This document shows positions 22,816 to 35,229 of a stretch of 43,703 nucleotides of DNA, in pieces. The notes beneath the pieces were generated by a model that saw only the letters and a list, made by a program, of their open reading frames with translations, was not told the DNA's origin and made no database searches. The number at the start of each line of letters is the position of its first letter. The stretch's first letter is position 1. The DNA comes from Bacteroidia bacterium (GTDB lineage Bacteria > Bacteroidota > Bacteroidia > JAYUJA01): the NCBI GenBank assembly GCA_043765495.1, contig JAYUJA010000009.1, positions 1 to 43,703 on the forward strand, in the 5' to 3' direction. Position numbers and translations under genes: made by a program.

Positions 22816-25800
22816 ATGAATAATTCTTCCGCCTACCAAGTTATTTTAGATAAATTAGACGCATTCATACGCAAATACTATAAAAATCAAATACTAAAAG
22901 GGATTTTATATACAGCAAGTATCCTTTTGATATTCTATTTGTTAGCTATTGTATTAGAATATTTTTCTCGGTTTAGCCCAGCTATTAAAACAGGCTTGGT
23001 GGGTACACTAGCAGTAGTAAGTGGTAGTATTATCCTGTATTTTATTATCATTCCTTTATTCAAATTATTAAAATTAGGAAAAACCCTCTCCTACGAGCAA
23101 GCTGCCGAAATCGTTGGTAGCCATTTCCTAACCATCAAAGATAAGCTATTAAATACACTACAGCTGAACCAATTAGCATTACAAAAACCTGCTAACATAG
23201 CCCTCATAGAAGCCAGTATCCAACAGCGGACGAATGAGCTGCGCCCTGTGCCTTTTACCAATGCTGTAGACCTAAACGAAAATAAAAAATACCTCAAATA
23301 TTTAGCCATTCCCCTTACTATTTTCTTCTTACTATTCCTATTCTACCGACAAGTAATCACCGAAGGCACTAGCCGACTACTGCAATACAACAAAGAATTT
23401 TTGCCACCAATGCCTTTTTCTTTTCAATTAGAAAACGAAAACTTACAAACCCGTTCCCAGCAAGATTTTGAACTAAATGTAGTAGTGAAAGGCACAGAAT
23501 TGCCCGAAATAGTATACGTAAAAGAAGGAGATGCAAAGTTCAAAACCATTAAAATAGATAATAACCATTTTTCGTATACCTTCCGTAATCCTACCCAAGA
23601 TGTTGGTTTTCAACTATGGGCAGACGGTTGGAGTTCGGATAAATACAATTTGGAAGTATTGCCAAGCCCTTCGTTGGTGGATTTTGAAGTAAACCTATCC
23701 TACCCAGCTTATACAGGTAAGAAAAACGAAGTAGTACAAAATTCAGGCGATTTGATAGTGCCAATAGGTACGACGGCTACATGGAAATTCAAAACCCAAA
23801 ATACAAACGATTTTTCGCTAGTATTTTCGGATAGTAGCCAAAAAACCATTTCCCCAAATACCGAAAACAATTATTCGTATACCGAAAAACTAGTCAAAAA
23901 TAAAAAATACATGGTAGCCGTAGCCAATGAACATTTTCAAGGTAGAGACTCCACCAAATACGCCGTGACAGTAATCCCCGACGCTTACCCATCTATCAAT
24001 ATAGACGAGATAAGAGATTCTCTAAACGAACAAAAAATATACTTTAATGGCGATGTATCCGACGATTATGGTTTCAGCCGCCTTGCATTTCATTATACCA
24101 TTATCAACCCCGATAATCCTGGTCGTAAAGTCGCGAATAGTTTCAACCTTAACGTAGATAAAGCCGTGATAGAAGCACATTTTACCTATGCCATAGATAT
24201 TGGTTCGCTGCCAGTACAGCCAGGCGATGAGATAGATTACTACTTCGAAGTGACGGATAATGATGGTGTTTTTGGTGCAAAATCTGCCCGCTCACAACAA
24301 GGTACTTACCACGTAAAAACCGTAAATGAACTCAAAGAAGAAGTAGAAAATGATAAAGAAATGATGAAAAATGACATGGAAAGTACGCTCAAAGATCTGA
24401 AAAAAATACAAAAAGAAATAGACGAATTGAATAAAAAAATGCTCGATAAAAAAGAATTAGACTATAACGATAAAAAACGGTTGGAAGAGCTAATGAAGCA
24501 AGAAAAACAAATCCAGCAACAGCTACAAGACATACAAAAGCAAAGTACCGACAACCAGAAAGAACAAAAAGAAATGAATAAAAAAGAAAATTATGAAAAA
24601 AGTGAACGAATATTAGAAAAAGAAAAACAAATCCAAGACCTTTTTAATAAAATAATGGACGAGGATATGAAAAAGAAATACGAAGAACTAGAAAAATTAA
24701 TGAAAGAAATGGATAAAAATAAACTGAAAGAACAATTGGAAAAAATGAAAGAAGAAAACAAAGATTTGGAAAAAGAACTGGATAGAACCCTCGAATTATA
24801 CAAACAACTAGAAGTAGAACAACAGCTAGATAAAGTAATGCAAGAACTAGATAAGCTGCAAGAAAAACAAGAAAAACTAGCCGAAGAGTCCAAAAAAGCT
24901 ACTACCAAGCCCGAAGAAATAAAAAAACAACAAGACGAATTGAATAAAAAAATGGACGAACTAAAAGACGATTTGGATAAATTGCAAGAAAAAAATAAAG
25001 AATTAGAAAAGCCTTTTGAATTAGAAGAAACCAAAGAAGAGGAAGAAGAAACCAAAAAAGATATGGAAGAAAGCTCCGAAGATTTGGAGAAAAAAGAGAA
25101 AGAAAAAGCTTCTAAAAAACAAAAGAAAGCAGCAGCAGGAATGGCAAAAATGAAAGATAAGTTGAATAAAATGAAAAAAGATATGGAAGAAGAAGAAGGC
25201 GAAGATTTGGAGAAATTACGTAATCTATTGGAAAATGTAGTCCAGCTCTCCTTCGACGAAGAAAGAATCATGAAACAACTCAAAAAAATAGACATCAATA
25301 ACCCACAATACAAAGAAATAACCAAAGACCAACGTCGACTACGTGAAAACGCTCAAATGGTCGAAGATTCGCTTTTTGCATTGAGTAAAAGGGTGGTAGA
25401 ATTGCAATCCATCATCAATACCGAAATAGCAGATATAAATAGAAATATGGACGATGCACTAGAATTACTAGCCGAAAGATACCTATCGCAAGCTACTGGA
25501 AAACAACAGTTTGTAATGACACATCTCAATAATCTAGCCTTACTATTAAGCGAGATAGTACAAGACAAACAACAAGACCAAGCAGAATCCGAACAGCAGA
25601 TGAAAGGAAACGGCTCGTGTAAAAAACCTGGTGGAAACGGCAAAGGTGGCAAAAAAGGAAAGAAAAAAGGAAACAAACCTTCGCAATCCCTTCAAAGCAT
25701 GCAACAGATGCAAGACCAACTGAATAAGCAACTCAAAGACATGAAAGAAGGGAAAGGAGAAAGCAAAGGCGGTAAAGGTAGCGAAGGCAAACAAGGCAGC

Positions 25801-30737: not shown

Positions 30738-30773
30738 TAAAAAGCCGCTTCTTACACAAGAAGCGGCTTTTTA
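30738..30773 (+). terminator. Intrinsic terminator of rpsP
   Basis: TAAAAAGCCGCTTCTT-ACAC-AAGAAGCGGCTTTTTA perfect inverted repeat. Confidence 0.9.
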
Positions 30774-30829: not shown

Positions 30830-30951
30830 AACCTAGTATTTACGAAAAAGTGTCGGAGGGAAGTTATCGAACTTTACTACTGTACCCAGCAGTGGTACTA
30901 AACCTGTGCTTTGTGCTTTCTATCCCACTTCTTCGTAAATACTTGGACGTT
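30830..30951 (+). repeat. 122-bp palindromic element, copy 1 (attC-like recombination site)
   Basis: Begins AAC and ends GTT; arms AGTATTTACGAAAAAGTG / CACTTCTTCGTAAATACT; 5 mismatches to copy 2 at 35108-35229. Confidence 0.85.
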
Positions 30952-30993
30952 GGTGGCAATGAAAAAAAAAATCTCACCTTATACTAATTTTAC

Positions 30994-31001
30994 TAATTTT
31001 G
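30994..31001 (+). promoter_or_regulatory. Bacteroidota -7 promoter element inside the cassette
   Basis: TAATTTTG (TAnnTTTG) 29 nt upstream of ATG 31031, spacing similar to other genes in the window. Confidence 0.55.
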
Positions 31002-31030
31002 CGTTACTACTTCTAACATAACCAATACCA

Positions 31031-31663
31031 ATGACTAACTTACTAAAAAGCTATGCCGAAACAGGCGATGTAGCAAATACACAGGTAGGAGAAGATTTTT
31101 TGAGTCCAATATTGAATTTCCAACAAAAAGCCAAAGCTACTTGGAAAACAATTACATTTAAGGCATTATGGGAAAATTATCCAAGCAGTACAGTGGAGCA
31201 TTTGGACACAAATAATAATGATATTTATAAAAACCATTGTGCCATTCATTTGAGTGAATCTCTTTTTCAAAGTGGTATAGAATTTATTGGTGATTGTAGT
31301 AAATATTCTTGTCCTAATGGTAGAAGTACCCATATTTTACTTGCAACAAGCCTATCAGTTAAAATTAATGTACAAACAAATGGTATAAAAAATATACTAC
31401 GAAAAGATCTTACTGGTGCAACGTATGAAGCCTATGTAAAAGATAAAACAGGGATAATTTATTTTGAAAACTACTGGAAAAGACCGCAGGAAACAGATGA
31501 AAAAAGAAGTGGTGATCATATAGATTTGTGGAATAAAAATGAACTGGCAAGTAATGGTGTGCTCAAAACTTGGTTAAGACAAGCCTTTCCATCAGTTGCG
31601 GAAAGATTGGGTTCATCTGATTTAACAAAATCTAAAAACGTAATATTTTGGGAAATAAAATAA
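31031..31663 (+). CDS. Tae4-family peptidoglycan amidase effector with shared 21-aa N-terminal leader
   Basis: TF..LW.NYP, NHCAI.LS (catalytic Cys), K.GIIYF.NYW, GDHIDLWN (catalytic His) and V.FWEI motifs; no Sec signal. Confidence 0.8.
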   Translation: MTNLLKSYAETGDVANTQVGEDFLSPILNFQQKAKATWKTITFKALWENYPSSTVEHLDTNNNDIYKNHCAIHLSESLFQSGIEFIGDCSKYSCPNGRSTHILLATSLSVKINVQTNGIKNILRKDLTGATYEAYVKDKTGIIYFENYWKRPQETDEKRSGDHIDLWNKNELASNGVLKTWLRQAFPSVAERLGSSDLTKSKNVIFWEIK

Positions 31664-31926
31664 TAACAAACCTGTTCTTCTTACTTATCTCAATGGTAAG
31701 TAGCATATTGATAGCCTTTGGCATTCTTACTTTAAGAAATGAGAATAAAATCGTTTCATTAATTTTCAATAAAGTTTTAAAATTGAAAAGAACTGCTCAT
31801 TATCAAGGAGAAAGTTTAGCAAATGAAATTTGGGACATTGGGTTATTTTATTTGTTACCTCTTGTTTTCATAATAGTATCCATAATAATTTACTTTTTAA
31901 GAAGATATTTCAAGAATAAGATGTAA
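31648..31926 (+). CDS. Small two-TM membrane protein, candidate immunity protein
   Basis: Overlaps the amidase stop (TTG start; alternative ATG at 31693); two hydrophobic segments; very AT-rich. Confidence 0.55.
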   Translation: MGNKIITNLFFLLISMVSSILIAFGILTLRNENKIVSLIFNKVLKLKRTAHYQGESLANEIWDIGLFYLLPLVFIIVSIIIYFLRRYFKNKM

Positions 31927-31976
31927 ATTACAATTAGTATTTGAGTACCATTTTTCAACCTTAAAACAACAATAGT

Positions 31977-33737
31977 ATGCCCAAAGATTTAAACACCCTC
32001 GTCCTAGAACGCCGTAGCGACCTTACCAACTGTGCTGGTGGCAAGCCCCTCATTACCTTTGGAGGTGGAGATGCCCCTGTACTGGATTATCGTATGCCAC
32101 AATCTACCTCGTTTGACACGTATAGCCCTGTAAAATTAGTTGTAAATGAAAAATGTTGGAGTGCCAAAGCCCTAAAAGTGTACCCGAATGCCTATGCCAA
32201 CCTTACACCATCACAAATAAGTGCAGTAGTAGCACAAAATAGTTCGCAAGTAGTAGATGCTAAACAACCCATTACCAACCTACTGCGTGCAGTAGCTCAT
32301 AACTTGCAAGCAATGGACGATTCCGTGCTTCGTCAAGCTAAAGATAAAGCAGATACCAAACCAAGCCCTACACCCGAAGCTACACCCGATACCGTGTTCC
32401 AGTTGTTCAAAAATGGATATACCGCCCGTTTCTTAAATAAGTTTAATGGCAAAGAACAAACCTTGCTTTTAGAACAACGCCCTACACAAGCAAACCCTAC
32501 ATTATTCGTATTACACAAGTACAAAACCAAATCTTTTTTAGGAAATTATGGTGCAGGGCAAACCATCAGTACATTTAGCCTTTTGCCAGGGGAGAAAACC
32601 ACCATTATAATTAAATCATTTAAAGAAATTTCAGAAGTAAAAACCTCGTCCAGTAATATTGTAGATAGTTTTAGCAAAGAAAGTGCCGATGAAATGGAGA
32701 ATTTGTTAGAGGCGGAAACTTCTACCAATCAATCCAATAGCAACACAGGTACACTCACCACCAACGAAGGCAAAACACGCACCGCAGAAGCCCATTTTGA
32801 TGTAAATGCAAGTTTTAAAATTGCGGGACAAGGTGGCAGTGCCAGTGCAGGCGGTAGCATCAATGGTACAAACTCATCAAACACTACCAATACCGTAAGC
32901 ACGTCTGCGACTTCTGCCCAAAATGCAAAAGATTTGCACAAAGCACTCGAAAAACACGTAAATAAAAGCAATGCCAACCGTACCCATACCATACAGCAAA
33001 GCGACACTACAAGCAGTAAAGAAACGTACGAGAACACCACCACCCGAGAAATAGTAAACCCCAACATAGGACGAGTACTTAATTTTGTATTCCGAAACCT
33101 AAACCAAGGCTATAAAGTGCTTACAAGTTTGGAAGAGATAAAAATAGGATTTACCAACGGACAACCCGAAAGCGAAATAATGGTAGATATAAGTCAGCTT
33201 GATTTTTTGCTAAATGAAGTCCTAAAAAACGATGCAGAAGGCGAAAAGTGCAAACAAACTTTACGGGATTACATTTTTTGCCAATACGGTACAGTTACAG
33301 ATTATAATGGTGTAGAACGCCCTTTTATCCAGCCTCATACCGAGGATAAACCTTGTGGAAATATTTCTTATTTCAGAAAAATACCCAAACTGCAATACTT
33401 TTACAACACCGTTACAGACGAAACAATAACCAAAGAACAAGCTGACGATAAAGGCGTAGCTGGCATATTAAAATTAGCTATGAATGGTGTGATACTCAAT
33501 GCCGATGAATTTGTACTAAAAACCGATGCCGTAATCATTGATGCCCTTTTGGGACACGCTTCTGCGTTAGACTGTTTTAATGCCAATGTTCAAGAAGAAA
33601 AGAAAAATGAATTACTACTCAACAACCTAAAACAAGAACTTGCTTTTGAGACATTGAAGCAAATAGCAGACCCCATAAAACGAGCCGAAATGTATGCCGA
33701 AATGTTTAACCCTCGCCAAACAATCAGCAAGCAATAG
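31977..33737 (+). CDS. Uncharacterised 586-aa protein with Ser/Thr-rich amphipathic core; candidate carrier or pore-forming translocase
   Basis: Long clean ORF. FLGNYGAG.T..TFSLLPGEKT and TTREI.N.N.GR.LNFVFR blocks flank a Ser/Thr/Asn-rich stretch; helical C-terminus; no signal peptide. Function is inferred only. Confidence 0.6.
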   Translation: MPKDLNTLVLERRSDLTNCAGGKPLITFGGGDAPVLDYRMPQSTSFDTYSPVKLVVNEKCWSAKALKVYPNAYANLTPSQISAVVAQNSSQVVDAKQPITNLLRAVAHNLQAMDDSVLRQAKDKADTKPSPTPEATPDTVFQLFKNGYTARFLNKFNGKEQTLLLEQRPTQANPTLFVLHKYKTKSFLGNYGAGQTISTFSLLPGEKTTIIIKSFKEISEVKTSSSNIVDSFSKESADEMENLLEAETSTNQSNSNTGTLTTNEGKTRTAEAHFDVNASFKIAGQGGSASAGGSINGTNSSNTTNTVSTSATSAQNAKDLHKALEKHVNKSNANRTHTIQQSDTTSSKETYENTTTREIVNPNIGRVLNFVFRNLNQGYKVLTSLEEIKIGFTNGQPESEIMVDISQLDFLLNEVLKNDAEGEKCKQTLRDYIFCQYGTVTDYNGVERPFIQPHTEDKPCGNISYFRKIPKLQYFYNTVTDETITKEQADDKGVAGILKLAMNGVILNADEFVLKTDAVIIDALLGHASALDCFNANVQEEKKNELLLNNLKQELAFETLKQIADPIKRAEMYAEMFNPRQTISKQ

Positions 33738-33739
33738 CT

Positions 33740-34555
33740 ATGGGAAATCTAATAAAAAGCTACGCCGAAACTGGCGATGTAGCAGATACGCAGGTGGGGG
33801 AAACTACCATTGCAGATACGAATAGAGTTTTGAATTTCTTTGCAAAAAATAAAGATACAATTCGCTTTGAAAATAAAACTATAAAATGGGATTTCGTACT
33901 CACTGATGCTATGATAAAAAATGGTATTGAAGGAAAATATGATAACGATAGAAATTGTCCTATGTGCTGCTTAAAAGCATTTGCTAGCAACTTATTAGTG
34001 TTATACCCTCATTTGAAAAAATCAGATATTAAGACAAATGATATTATGTCAACTGCTTTAAGCACTCTAAAAAAAGATGAACTCGTTTCTTCTAAAATCA
34101 AAGTTCCACCATTTTACCAAGGAAAGAGATTAACTTCTAAATCTCATTCCGAAGTTGCTTTGGAGGATATTGAGAGCAAAATAAGTGATAGACTTTTAGA
34201 ACTAACACCAGATAAATCTATTTGTGTATTTGCAGTAGGTATAGCGGCTGAATATCATTCAACTTTAATTATAGTTTCTAAAGATACAGAGTATGAAGTA
34301 GATTTAAGCGAGAATGGAACTGAACAAATTTATAGCACAACTAATGATAATCCTTTATTTGTATTCGTAGAAGATAATGGAGGATCTCGTTATTTCAATG
34401 CAAGCGACCTTGATAATAAAATCTCTGAATTTATCAATGGTGCATATGAATATTACAGAGGAGAGAAAGAAATCCAAGGGGCAAGAGGTGTTAATATAAA
34501 TATAGATTATAATTTAGATGCAAATGTTTATCAACTTTTTTATCCAAATCAATAG
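33740..34555 (+). CDS. Putative effector with shared 21-aa leader; possible papain-like Cys-His-acidic hydrolase
   Basis: Leader is 18/21 identical to that of 31031. CPMCC, VGIAAEYHSTLI and FVFVED could supply a catalytic triad. Starts 2 nt after the upstream stop. Confidence 0.55.
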   Translation: MGNLIKSYAETGDVADTQVGETTIADTNRVLNFFAKNKDTIRFENKTIKWDFVLTDAMIKNGIEGKYDNDRNCPMCCLKAFASNLLVLYPHLKKSDIKTNDIMSTALSTLKKDELVSSKIKVPPFYQGKRLTSKSHSEVALEDIESKISDRLLELTPDKSICVFAVGIAAEYHSTLIIVSKDTEYEVDLSENGTEQIYSTTNDNPLFVFVEDNGGSRYFNASDLDNKISEFINGAYEYYRGEKEIQGARGVNINIDYNLDANVYQLFYPNQ

Positions 34556-34558
34556 CCA

Positions 34559-35089
34559 ATGAAGAATAATTTAAAACTATATTTTGTGATTTCTATTTGT
34601 TTTTTATTTACTAATAAATGCTTATGTCAGATAGATTCATTAAATAAAAGTATCAAAAAGGAGTTTGTAAATAGTAAAATTATAAAGAAGAACATTAGTT
34701 TTTTTAAATCTAAATTAGATATTTGTTTCAAGAATCAAATATCTAATTACACAGCAGTAACTTATTATATTTTTAAAAAAATAAGGAGACAAAACGTAGT
34801 ATCTGTACTGACTTTTGATAATGACAGTATTGCAAATCTACAGTTTAATATTTTAGAAAAAGAAGCTAATTTTGTTAGACAAACTCGTAGAGAATTGTTC
34901 CAAGAAATTTGTTATCTACCATTTGGAGGTAATCAGTTTTATTTTGTAACTGTAAAAAGTAATAAAGTATATTTATTTGGCGACAATGGTGGTTATAATT
35001 ATTCATTTGATTTTGAAAATTACAATTTTCAAAAAGCAATTGAACGCCAAAATCCTGAATTATTTCTACTTGTAAAATGCCTAAACTAA
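34559..35089 (+). CDS. Exported protein, candidate immunity protein
   Basis: Signal-peptide-like MKNNLKLYFVISICFLFTNKCLCQ; 3 nt after the upstream stop; very AT-rich. Confidence 0.55.
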   Translation: MKNNLKLYFVISICFLFTNKCLCQIDSLNKSIKKEFVNSKIIKKNISFFKSKLDICFKNQISNYTAVTYYIFKKIRRQNVVSVLTFDNDSIANLQFNILEKEANFVRQTRRELFQEICYLPFGGNQFYFVTVKSNKVYLFGDNGGYNYSFDFENYNFQKAIERQNPELFLLVKCLN

Positions 35090-35107
35090 ACCTTTTTCAC
35101 TGCCACC

Positions 35108-35229
35108 AACATAGTATTTACGAAAAAGTGGCGGAGGGAAGTTATTGGTCTTTACTACTGTACCCAGCAGTGGTACTAAACCTGTGCTTTGTGCTTTCTA
35201 TCCCACTTCTTCGTAAATACTTGGACGTT
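35108..35229 (+). repeat. 122-bp palindromic element, copy 2 (attC-like recombination site)
   Basis: Direct repeat of 30830-30951; starts 18 nt after the last cassette stop codon. Confidence 0.85.

Follow-up and report, generated by a model that had tools for sequence, protein, structure and literature searches.

Paired hairpins between rpsP and frr mark a probable gene cassette of an integron-like system in Bacteroidota

What places a block of five co-directional genes between rpsP and frr, two core translation genes, in a genome of the Bacteroidia, with a copy of the same long hairpin at each end of the block? The locus lies on contig JAYUJA010000009.1 of assembly GCA_043765495.1, a metagenome-assembled genome (MAG; herein G000) of 1.92 Mb in 247 contigs that is 79% complete; the window analyzed here is this whole contig (C9, 43,703 nucleotides). 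An earlier note, made from the sequence alone, had taken the two hairpins for attC-like sites defining an integron-style cassette with no integrase nearby. Our analysis makes it very probable that they are the sites of recombination in a cassette system that resembles integrons and is native to Bacteroidota, and that a single cassette of 4,278 bp has been inserted at this position.

A repeat search of the window returned one direct-repeat family with two copies, 30830 through 30952 and 35108 through 35230 (123 nt, 96% identity, spacing 4278; E = 1.5e-52 for copy 2 against copy 1 by BLAST within the genome). Measured from AAC to GTT, each copy spans 122 nt on the forward strand (copy 1, 30830 through 30951; copy 2, 35108 through 35229). 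The five mismatches in their alignment all fall within the left 45 nt, and the right 78 nt are identical. Each strand of either copy folds into a long, imperfect hairpin. As DNA, the top strand of copy 1 reaches −23.0 kcal/mol (z = −5.0; equalled by 0 of 200 shuffles) and that of copy 2 −19.6 kcal/mol (z = −2.4; equalled by 4 of 200). The bottom strands, whose folding the earlier note had proposed as a check, behave similarly. Each copy has AAC at its 5′ end, GTT at its 3′ end, a single A·C mismatch in the stem and three extra bases (GAC) before the GTT, so that the two 122-bp copies, their five mismatches, their imperfect hairpins and the extra bases near GTT, all reported in the earlier note, are indeed in the sequence.

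The flanks of the two hairpins are related to each other. The stretch that follows copy 1 (30949 through 30967) is the reverse complement of the one leading into copy 2 (35093 through 35110) at 17 of 18 positions, which bears out the inverted complementarity with one mismatch described earlier. The pairing covers 7 of 7 bases beyond GTT/AAC and reaches 18 nt, with its sole mismatch at position 11, the place of the A opposite C in the family. We refer to the first stretch (GTT plus 15 nt, forward strand), which forms the 5′ end of the cassette, as the R′-type box. Its position +4 is R, position +8 is G and position +11 is the A that never varies in the family; the right flanks of both copies carry A at +11 and G at +4. 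In the second, the R″-type box (18 nt ending in AAC, forward strand), the bases of the family recur, with C at both −11 and −8 and Y, in this case C, at −4. The cores of the boxes, CACCAAC and GTTGGTG, fall outside the RYYYAAC/GTTRRRY consensus. With a crossover at G|TT, the cassette would occupy 30950 through 35227 on the forward strand, 4,278 bp, the same value as the repeat spacing; these boundaries follow from the family rule given below. Because the arms of the palindrome are split by a whole gene set, only a circular molecule carrying the complete palindrome and recombined at AAC/GTT explains their arrangement. No target-site duplication is visible in the flanks of the repeats. A genome search for partners of the sequence outside the repeat pair, to the left of copy 1 and to the right of copy 2, and of both flanks of a third copy on contig C7 gave self-matches only, as expected if the sequence outside the pair is chromosomal. 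Rfam 15 gave no match at E ≤ 1 for the window region and two arrays from other genomes.

We looked for relatives of the hairpin by scanning 185,579 species, each represented by a single genome, with a gapped pattern made up of three conserved 8-mers. Of the 12 stretches returned, 11 were judged true elements (Chitinophagales, Saprospiraceae, Cytophagales, Flavobacterium and other MAGs), and in all of these conservation starts at AAC and ends at GTT; one stretch from Emticicia (L034) was rejected by eye as unrelated. A covariance model, R2, was then built from 14 sequences; an earlier model, R1, made from the window and C7 only, kept off other genomes. R2 scores copy 1 at 103.1 bits (E = 7.6e-27) and copy 2 at 111.4 bits (E = 3e-29), values that are partly circular since both copies are among the 14 training sequences. 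Across an even sample of the phylum (E ≤ 1e-6, strict filters), the R2 element is present in 60 of 151 Bacteroidota genomes and 41 of 89 genera, G000 included. Five genomes from the pattern scan hold 23, 20, 7, 2 and 53 matches, many of them in same-strand arrays with a spacing of 0.2 to 5 kb. The hairpin is typically ∼124 nt long, mostly 121 to 130 nt.

Structure statistics were taken from 74 elements aligned to the model. Standard pairs make up 91.2% of pair cells, versus 63.1% in column shuffles; the covariation score of 0.675 (0.166 shuffled) was reached by 0 of 500 shuffles and drops to 0.04 to 0.08 when the partner is slid by one to three columns. Within the main helix, 17 of 18 pairs show compensatory, two-sided change. 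The nearly invariant positions are AAC(A) and (C)GTT, one T-A pair and the mid-stem A opposite C (AAC, 97 to 100%; GTT, 99 to 100%; stem A·C, 100%/99%). As far as aligned sequences can tell, the hairpin is under selection as a structure, with structure rather than sequence conserved. The stem A·C becomes a G·T wobble on the bottom strand, so the two strands are not equivalent.

The flank complementarity of the window recurs in other genomes. For this comparison we used nine contigs or regions with 64 same-strand elements, left from 77 R2 matches after removal of 13 (11 opposite-strand shadows and 2 partial matches). At least six of seven bases beyond GTT/AAC are complementary in 39 of 55 adjacent pairs, 25 of them perfectly, versus 23 of 539 non-adjacent pairs on the same contig and 112 of 3438 pairs across contigs (3 to 4%). 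Typically, 10 nt pair, one mismatch follows at position 11 and about 4 nt more pair after it, the pattern that is also seen in the window. The flank positions are themselves constrained, with A at +11 in 64 of 64 elements and C at −11 in 52 of 64. RYYYAAC fits 7 and GTTRRRY 5 of the 64 elements, so the misfit of the cores noticed in the window is family-wide. In two MAGs (L026 and L031) the left flank and the hairpin are common to both, and divergence sets in right after GTT. Separately, one genome (G139; L082, C1 1992001 through 2006149) has full-length hairpins alternating with short hairpins of 77 to 81 nt, and one cassette start is repeated four times there, which suggests tandem amplification of a cassette pair.

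Experimental work on Riemerella anatipestifer bears on these boundaries. Plasmid pRCAD0416RA-1 carries 12 R2 hairpins in 18 kb, placed 3′ of aadS, both tet(X) copies, lnu(I), a RelE/HTH pair, blaOXA, estT, a phosphotransferase gene and aph(3′). The accessible part of a 2026 report (PMC13148043) describes natural transformation of strain ATCC 11845 with genomic DNA or a polymerase chain reaction product, by which aph(3′)-IVb is inserted at a single site without homology in its flanks. In every case 27 bp from upstream and 140 bp from downstream of the gene come in with it; the downstream segment folds in the manner of attC, and the authors call this stem-loop of the 3′ untranslated region attC-like. 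According to the same text, lnu(H) and blaRATA behaved likewise. Applied to aph(3′), the family rule gives 28 nt, the coding sequence and 139 nt, the same total of 167 nt with a one-base offset inside the shared GTT; the transformation therefore integrated exactly one cassette by the family boundaries. On the plasmid, most of the resistance genes are followed by a hairpin of this family; in the part of the report available to us, the captures are presented as single genes in one species, without a recombinase, the flank rule or the family. On the plasmid array itself (NZ_CP073240 913 through 18977; L164), the left box of the blaOXA cassette does not pair with its neighbor; its partner is the right flank of a hairpin that lies 7 kb upstream, a sign of past reshuffling.

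The earlier note had expected arrays with an associated Xer- or IntI-like recombinase elsewhere, and such arrays exist. The array of one genome (G062) is adjoined by a 295-residue recombinase and then an IS91 transposase. In a second genome (G061), a 2.2-kb unit comprising an IS91 transposase and a recombinase stops exactly at the AAC of a hairpin, as seen in two aligned copies, and recombinase-like stretches stand beside hairpins at ten places. The trio of IS91, recombinase and hairpin is also found on a mobilizable Myroides plasmid. A 35-kb array in a third genome (G181) is headed by a co-directional recombinase of 355 residues, 34% identical to the G062 enzyme, and an open reading frame (ORF) scan of this one co-directional array found no IS91 gene at its head. 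The G061 unit is multi-copy on the chromosome (CP058702; e.g., L075 5119 through 7400 and 15944 through 18001), and eight of the recombinase copies share the same in-frame TAG, for which a pseudogene, a split gene or recoding are possible.

In the phylum sample, recombinases were counted at ≥122 bits, and a hairpin was taken as a partner when it lay within 15 kb on the same contig; the counts that follow hold among the matches listed, 150 of 240, which include 147 hairpins outside G000. At least 18 of 65 recombinase matches have a hairpin partner, and in 17 of 18 cases the recombinase stands at the 5′ end of the array, 12 times co-directional with it and 5 times divergent. A recombinase is present in 50 genomes, a hairpin in 48 and both in 29, so hairpins without the enzyme, as in G000, are common. 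The array-linked enzymes score below the cut-offs of the XerA/IntI, IntI, XerC and XerD models. Against TIGR02249 they reach 168 bits (cut-off 265) in two stretches that skip model positions 180 through 236, the IntI insertion; the nearest solved structures are XerA (141.6 bits), IntI4 (128 bits, split) and XerD (95.6 bits), and the match to Protein Data Bank (PDB) entry 2a3v is also split. The accessible text of a preprint (10.1101/542381) describes recombinases in IS91 elements as the closest homologs of IntI, without the IntI insertion. The array-linked enzymes behave like this “integron-like” IS91-associated subgroup of tyrosine recombinases, for which that text names no function or site.

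Taken together with the anatomy of the window, these observations fit a cassette that would begin with the TT of one GTT, end with the G of the following GTT and comprise a few dozen bases, the cargo genes and its own hairpin. In a circularized cassette, the first 10 to 18 nt would pair with the 10 to 18 nt before the hairpin to make a longer stem. At this locus, the 4,278-bp cassette would have entered at the GTT of a resident hairpin just past the rpsP terminator, copy 1 being the resident site that received it and copy 2 the hairpin that arrived with it. It would have brought a Tae4 toxin with a candidate immunity protein, a 586-residue protein (p3), a second toxin-like protein and a secreted candidate immunity protein. 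Insertion and excision would most likely be catalyzed in trans by an IntI/XerA-like tyrosine recombinase of the kind labelled XerD in databases. What is demonstrated here is how the locus is built, that it belongs to the family, that the stem covaries, that the flanks follow a rule and that a recombinase is linked to the hairpins in other genomes; integration of a single cassette without homology has been shown by others in one species. From these we infer the movement of this cassette by this route, the strand that folds and the enzyme that acts.

The host genome adds two loci. BLAST, nhmmer and the first covariance model together found three full hairpin copies in the 1.92 Mb, plus one remnant. 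The third full copy lies on C7 downstream of rpmE, with a putative insertion sequence (IS) between; it has diverged and keeps its stem through compensatory changes. At that locus (L014; 1355 through 1496 on the reverse strand, 1593 through 2266 and 2491 through 2781), the intervening element has two ORFs and resembles a frameshifted IS transposase. The remnant, on C112 (L003, ∼22272 through 22300), is a right hairpin end of 28 nt (93%) that closes with GTT and lies directly after the stop codon of a gene. Both full loci of the MAG thus sit after ribosomal-protein genes, rpsP and rpmE, which suggests that cassettes may be expressed by read-through.

Several observations weigh against the cassette reading. 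Sixteen of the 55 adjacent pairs break the flank rule, mostly across long gaps, IS insertions, three non-cassette intervals in G061 and the short elements of G139. The alignment behind the covariation score was fitted to the model and favors structure, a bias that the slid controls share, and the genomes behind the recombinase counts are kin and not independent. G000 itself has only the three full copies and shows no array. As the earlier note had it, there is no tyrosine recombinase on the 43.7-kb contig; the PF00589 matches of the genome lie on three other contigs, and no cognate enzyme and no IS91 transposase were found in this 79%-complete MAG. Its best Xer-like match is a XerD-type fragment, 33% identical, and a 349-residue integrase on C241 matches the array recombinase weakly (33% over 49 residues, E = 5e-4). 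The missing enzyme is weak evidence of absence, because 21% of the genome is missing and multi-copy elements often stay unbinned. The cassette reading does not account for the near-identity of the two hairpins (96%, with the differences one-sided), between which RecA-dependent recombination could also delete or duplicate the segment.

The circle and the empty rpsP-frr site that the earlier note had proposed to look for were not seen in the contigs of three runs from one biofilm study, one of which is possibly the source of the MAG, and no joints turned up there; since contigs drop rare variants, this null result says little either way. BLAST with the 123-mer in 60 relatives, also proposed there, gave 0 of 60, and the nearest representatives are related only at class level, which makes an empty-site comparison impossible. 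The same three runs contain loose ends, other contigs that carry the right arm of this hairpin subtype next to different flanks, which points to more cassettes of this subtype in the same community.

The linkage to IS91 opens another route, on which the hairpin family is read correctly and the cassettes are moved by an IS91-type rolling-circle transposase of the HUH (Y2) class, alone or with the recombinase. HUH enzymes cut single-stranded DNA beside hairpins, the G061 unit ends at a hairpin AAC, the trio recurs on the Myroides plasmid, and published tetX-catB-IS91-XerD clusters have the same linkage, as far as the accessible text of PMC11194056 goes. We nevertheless regard this route as unlikely: a crossover at AAC/GTT between paired R-type boxes follows the logic of a tyrosine recombinase acting on attC, and the G181 array, the single co-directional array with an ORF scan, has no IS91 gene at its head. 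Less probable still is that the hairpin serves mainly as a transcript element, a terminator or stabilizer, and that the 4.3-kb segment arrived by homologous recombination or duplication with no dedicated system. Every copy in the genome does lie behind the end of a gene or operon (rpsP, p5, the gene on C112 and, on C7, a position downstream of rpmE), 96% identity over 123 nt suffices for RecA, and the MAG has yielded no cognate recombinase. Homologous recombination, however, creates neither an 18-nt inverted complementarity nor the rule seen in 39 of 55 pairs elsewhere; the A that is invariant at +11 is not part of the repeat, and integration free of homology has been published (PMC13148043, in its accessible part).

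A composite-transposon arrangement, with the repeats as non-autonomous transposons flanking the genes in the manner of MITEs (miniature inverted-repeat transposable elements) or REPs (repetitive extragenic palindromes), would accommodate the 18-nt terminal inverted arms and the frequent occurrence of the elements on short, high-coverage contigs. It is very improbable all the same: the flanks obey the cassette rule, which largely refutes it, the arrays run in one orientation, no duplication is visible at the ends, and the genome has only three full copies. The dispersed MITE or REP against which the earlier note had set its reading is accordingly not what the genome contains, with three copies and a remnant in 1.92 Mb and a flank complementarity that recurs from pair to pair.

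The cassette system resembles integrons in several respects. As with attC cassettes, one or more ORFs are followed by an imperfect AAC…GTT hairpin whose structure is conserved over its sequence, and arrays run in one orientation; the first bases of a cassette pair with the bases before its own hairpin, the R″/R′ relation that is found in the window. The cargo is rich in defense and toxin-antitoxin genes with some resistance genes, and a recombinase heads the array. The family length of 121 to 130 nt falls within the attC range. The differences are equally definite. Unlike IntI, the array-linked recombinase is without the IntI-specific insertion, and it is usually co-directional with its array (12 of 17 among the matches listed). 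Unlike those of attC, the R-type boxes are 10 to 15 nt long and not 7, have a fixed A opposite C at position 11 and fit RYYYAAC/GTTRRRY poorly. The extrahelical bases of attC lie on the 5′ arm, and the unpaired extra bases of this family on the 3′ arm. No attI-like site was identified, the window has no integron platform (attI and a Pc promoter beside an integrase), and insertion there would have been of a hairpin into a hairpin. The attC sites within sedentary chromosomal integrons are highly similar to one another. The system works like an integron yet fails two defining tests, the IntI insertion and the R-box consensus. The window, with recombination sites and a cassette and no recombinase nearby, recalls a cluster of attC sites lacking integron-integrases (CALIN), although CALINs are defined by the attC model of IntegronFinder and the window has two sites only.

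In architecture the closest described system is rAID-1 of gut Bacteroidales (Ross et al. 2019). The accessible text (bioRxiv 10.1101/471110) gives a 5′ XerD-like recombinase and co-directional arrays of short genes, and it and PMC12247911, likewise seen in part, speak of “repetitive intergenic sequences reminiscent of integrons” and a cargo linked to interbacterial toxins. As defined there, rAID-1 belongs to Bacteroidales and orphan immunity genes; the window has toxins with candidate immunity genes and no recombinase, so it falls outside the definition of a 5′ XerD-like recombinase with at least two co-directional low-GC genes, and the arrays of other genomes have that architecture. Clusters of tetX-catB-IS91-XerD are reported from Flavobacteriales (PMC11194056), and xerD adjoins tet(X) in another report (PMC7473080), in both cases with a negative integron prediction. 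They contain the same pair of IS91 and “XerD” that we find abutting a hairpin on the Myroides plasmid and in G061; in their accessible parts, both articles give gene neighborhoods only, with neither hairpins nor cassettes. Searches of the open literature (subscription journals and supplements lay outside the scope) turned up no account of the hairpin family as a system, of its flank rule or of its spread through the phylum, and the accessible part of the Nucleic Acids Research 2024 census of MITEs has nothing on the family. The system is in print only in fragments: rAID-1, the tetX-IS91-XerD clusters and the “attC-like” 3′ untranslated region. The proposal in the earlier note of a divergent Bacteroidota cassette system therefore stands as to the family, its arrays and its flank rule, with the correction that parts of the system have been printed already for rAID-1 and for Riemerella.

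Integrons are the textbook engine of cassette capture. Surveys place them as nearly absent from Bacteroidetes, IntegronFinder 2.0 giving only In0 elements and a single complete integron there, according to the part of PMC9024848 available to us. On balance we lean towards a second lineage of integrons that would be native to Bacteroidota and occur in about two fifths of its species, with “XerD” enzymes that are sisters of IntI, hairpin-on-hairpin insertion without a classical attI and occasional transport on IS91. Such a lineage would unify rAID-1, the tet(X)/XerD/IS91 clusters and environmental defense islands, and solo hairpins beside ribosomal-protein genes, as in the window, would serve as landing sites where promoterless cassettes gain expression. 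If the hairpin family is the integron counterpart of Bacteroidota, a large share of the accessory genes of the phylum, including phage defense, toxin-antitoxin systems and interbacterial toxins, would move by a defined and testable mechanism, to which duck- and human-associated Flavobacteriales would add tet(X), blaOXA, lnu, estT and aph(3′). The covariance model would find cassettes that integron finders and resistance-context pipelines label “no mobile element”, and the comparison of IntI with a sister enzyme that is without the insertion and apparently uses folded sites would inform the origin of integrons. For the window, an odd island between two core translation genes is explained as a true cassette of an integron-like system that has been described only poorly, and a toxin module with a shared leader is flagged.

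Arrays that were annotated in other genomes carry a diversity-generating retroelement, three restriction-modification systems and an RHS protein. Their defense cargo includes two Shedu systems, AIPR, DndB, GmrSD, ThsB-TIR/SLATT and a reverse transcriptase with a UvrD helicase, and their toxin-antitoxin pairs are ParDE and HigBA. The G181 array (L080/L081, C1 110001 through 150000) additionally contains five copies of a 324-residue ORF, at least three of them beside hairpins with an identical left flank; the copy that was scanned is an IS110-family transposase. IS1111-type elements target attC, and the IS110-family copies of G181 recall them.

The cassette of the window is bounded by conserved genes, all on the forward strand like its cargo. 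Upstream, rpsP (29894 through 30727; Pfam Ribosomal_S16, 6.2e-26) encodes ribosomal protein S16, extended at its C terminus by a long stretch rich in repeats, and a probable intrinsic terminator of rpsP (30744 through 30776), read from the sequence, comprises a 10-bp GC-rich palindrome, a 4-nt loop and a T-run. Downstream, frr (35405 through 35971; Pfam RRF, 6.1e-65) encodes the ribosome recycling factor. The earlier note had called the cargo unusually large: at 4,278 bp the cassette is the longest of 39 complementarity-verified cassettes measured, the next being 3.6 kb, and the claim holds in degree only, since a metagenome cassette of ∼8.7 kb exists. Its GC content is 0.27 to 0.42, versus 0.35 to 0.41 in the flanks.

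The first gene, p1 (31031 through 31663, 210 residues), encodes a Tae4-family peptidoglycan amidase toxin (Pfam PF14113, 2.1e-17, above the cut-off) with an N-terminal leader of ∼20 residues. It is overlapped at its end by p2 (31648 through 31926, 92 residues), an ORF with hydrophobic stretches and no family match that, from its position, is a candidate p1 immunity protein. The third, p3 (31977 through 33737, 586 residues), belongs to a large uncharacterized family, mostly from Bacteroidota (336 relatives, no Pfam). It is followed by p4 (33740 through 34555, 271 residues), a second putative toxin without a Pfam match whose leader is as in p1, and by p5 (34559 through 35089, 176 residues), an ORF with a signal-peptide-like N terminus and a sub-threshold match to DUF4221 (18.1 bits, cut-off 23.4), which may be the p4 immunity protein. 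No TssC (PF05943) was found in the 79%-complete MAG.

The first 42 residues of p4 are 57% identical to the start of p1 (24 of 42). The leader consensus of p1 (31031 through 31100) and p4 (33740 through 33810), M-x-N-L-[LI]-K-S-Y-A-E-T-G-D-V-A-x-T-Q-V-G-E, is about 20 residues long and has no further copy in the genome. Among 80 p3 loci the motif occurs once (L084, 5967 through 6029), in the gene after the closest p3 homolog on a metagenome contig, and a second, weak match (E = 0.92, L131) falls within a p3 homolog. The leader may be a signal for sorting or for loading that is linked to p3. Homologs of p3 recur as cassette cargo in the first gene position: a hairpin lies in the retrieved flanks of 8 of 80 metagenome loci, and in five of these eight the p3 gene begins ∼100 to 500 nt past the hairpin with the flank rule satisfied.

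The AlphaFold2 model of p3 (mean confidence score pLDDT 63) has long β-hairpins and no PDB match at E ≤ 0.001; the weak leads are aerolysin/ETX-type pore formers (Foldseek E = 0.07; atlas 0.77) and Cry-type rows. The p3 protein may be a delivery or pore component for both toxins. For p4, language-model features lie nearest the Peptidase_C58 (YopT-type) and Toxin_15 (ShET2-type) clusters (atlas score 0.94, 171 shared features), a lead only, with no support from hidden Markov models, toward a papain-like Peptidase_C58/Toxin_15 clan.

Two further features of the neighboring sequence were noted. A consensus terminator scan did not list the perfect 10-bp palindrome and T-run at 30744 through 30776, and the C-terminal extension of rpsP (∼190 residues) contains tandem repeats of 27 nt, or nine residues (30331 through 30492), and a DUF4332/helix-hairpin-helix domain. 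Farther upstream, an ORF of 1133 residues at 22816 through 26217 contains several internal direct repeats rich in Lys and Glu (families D2, D3, D5 and D9).

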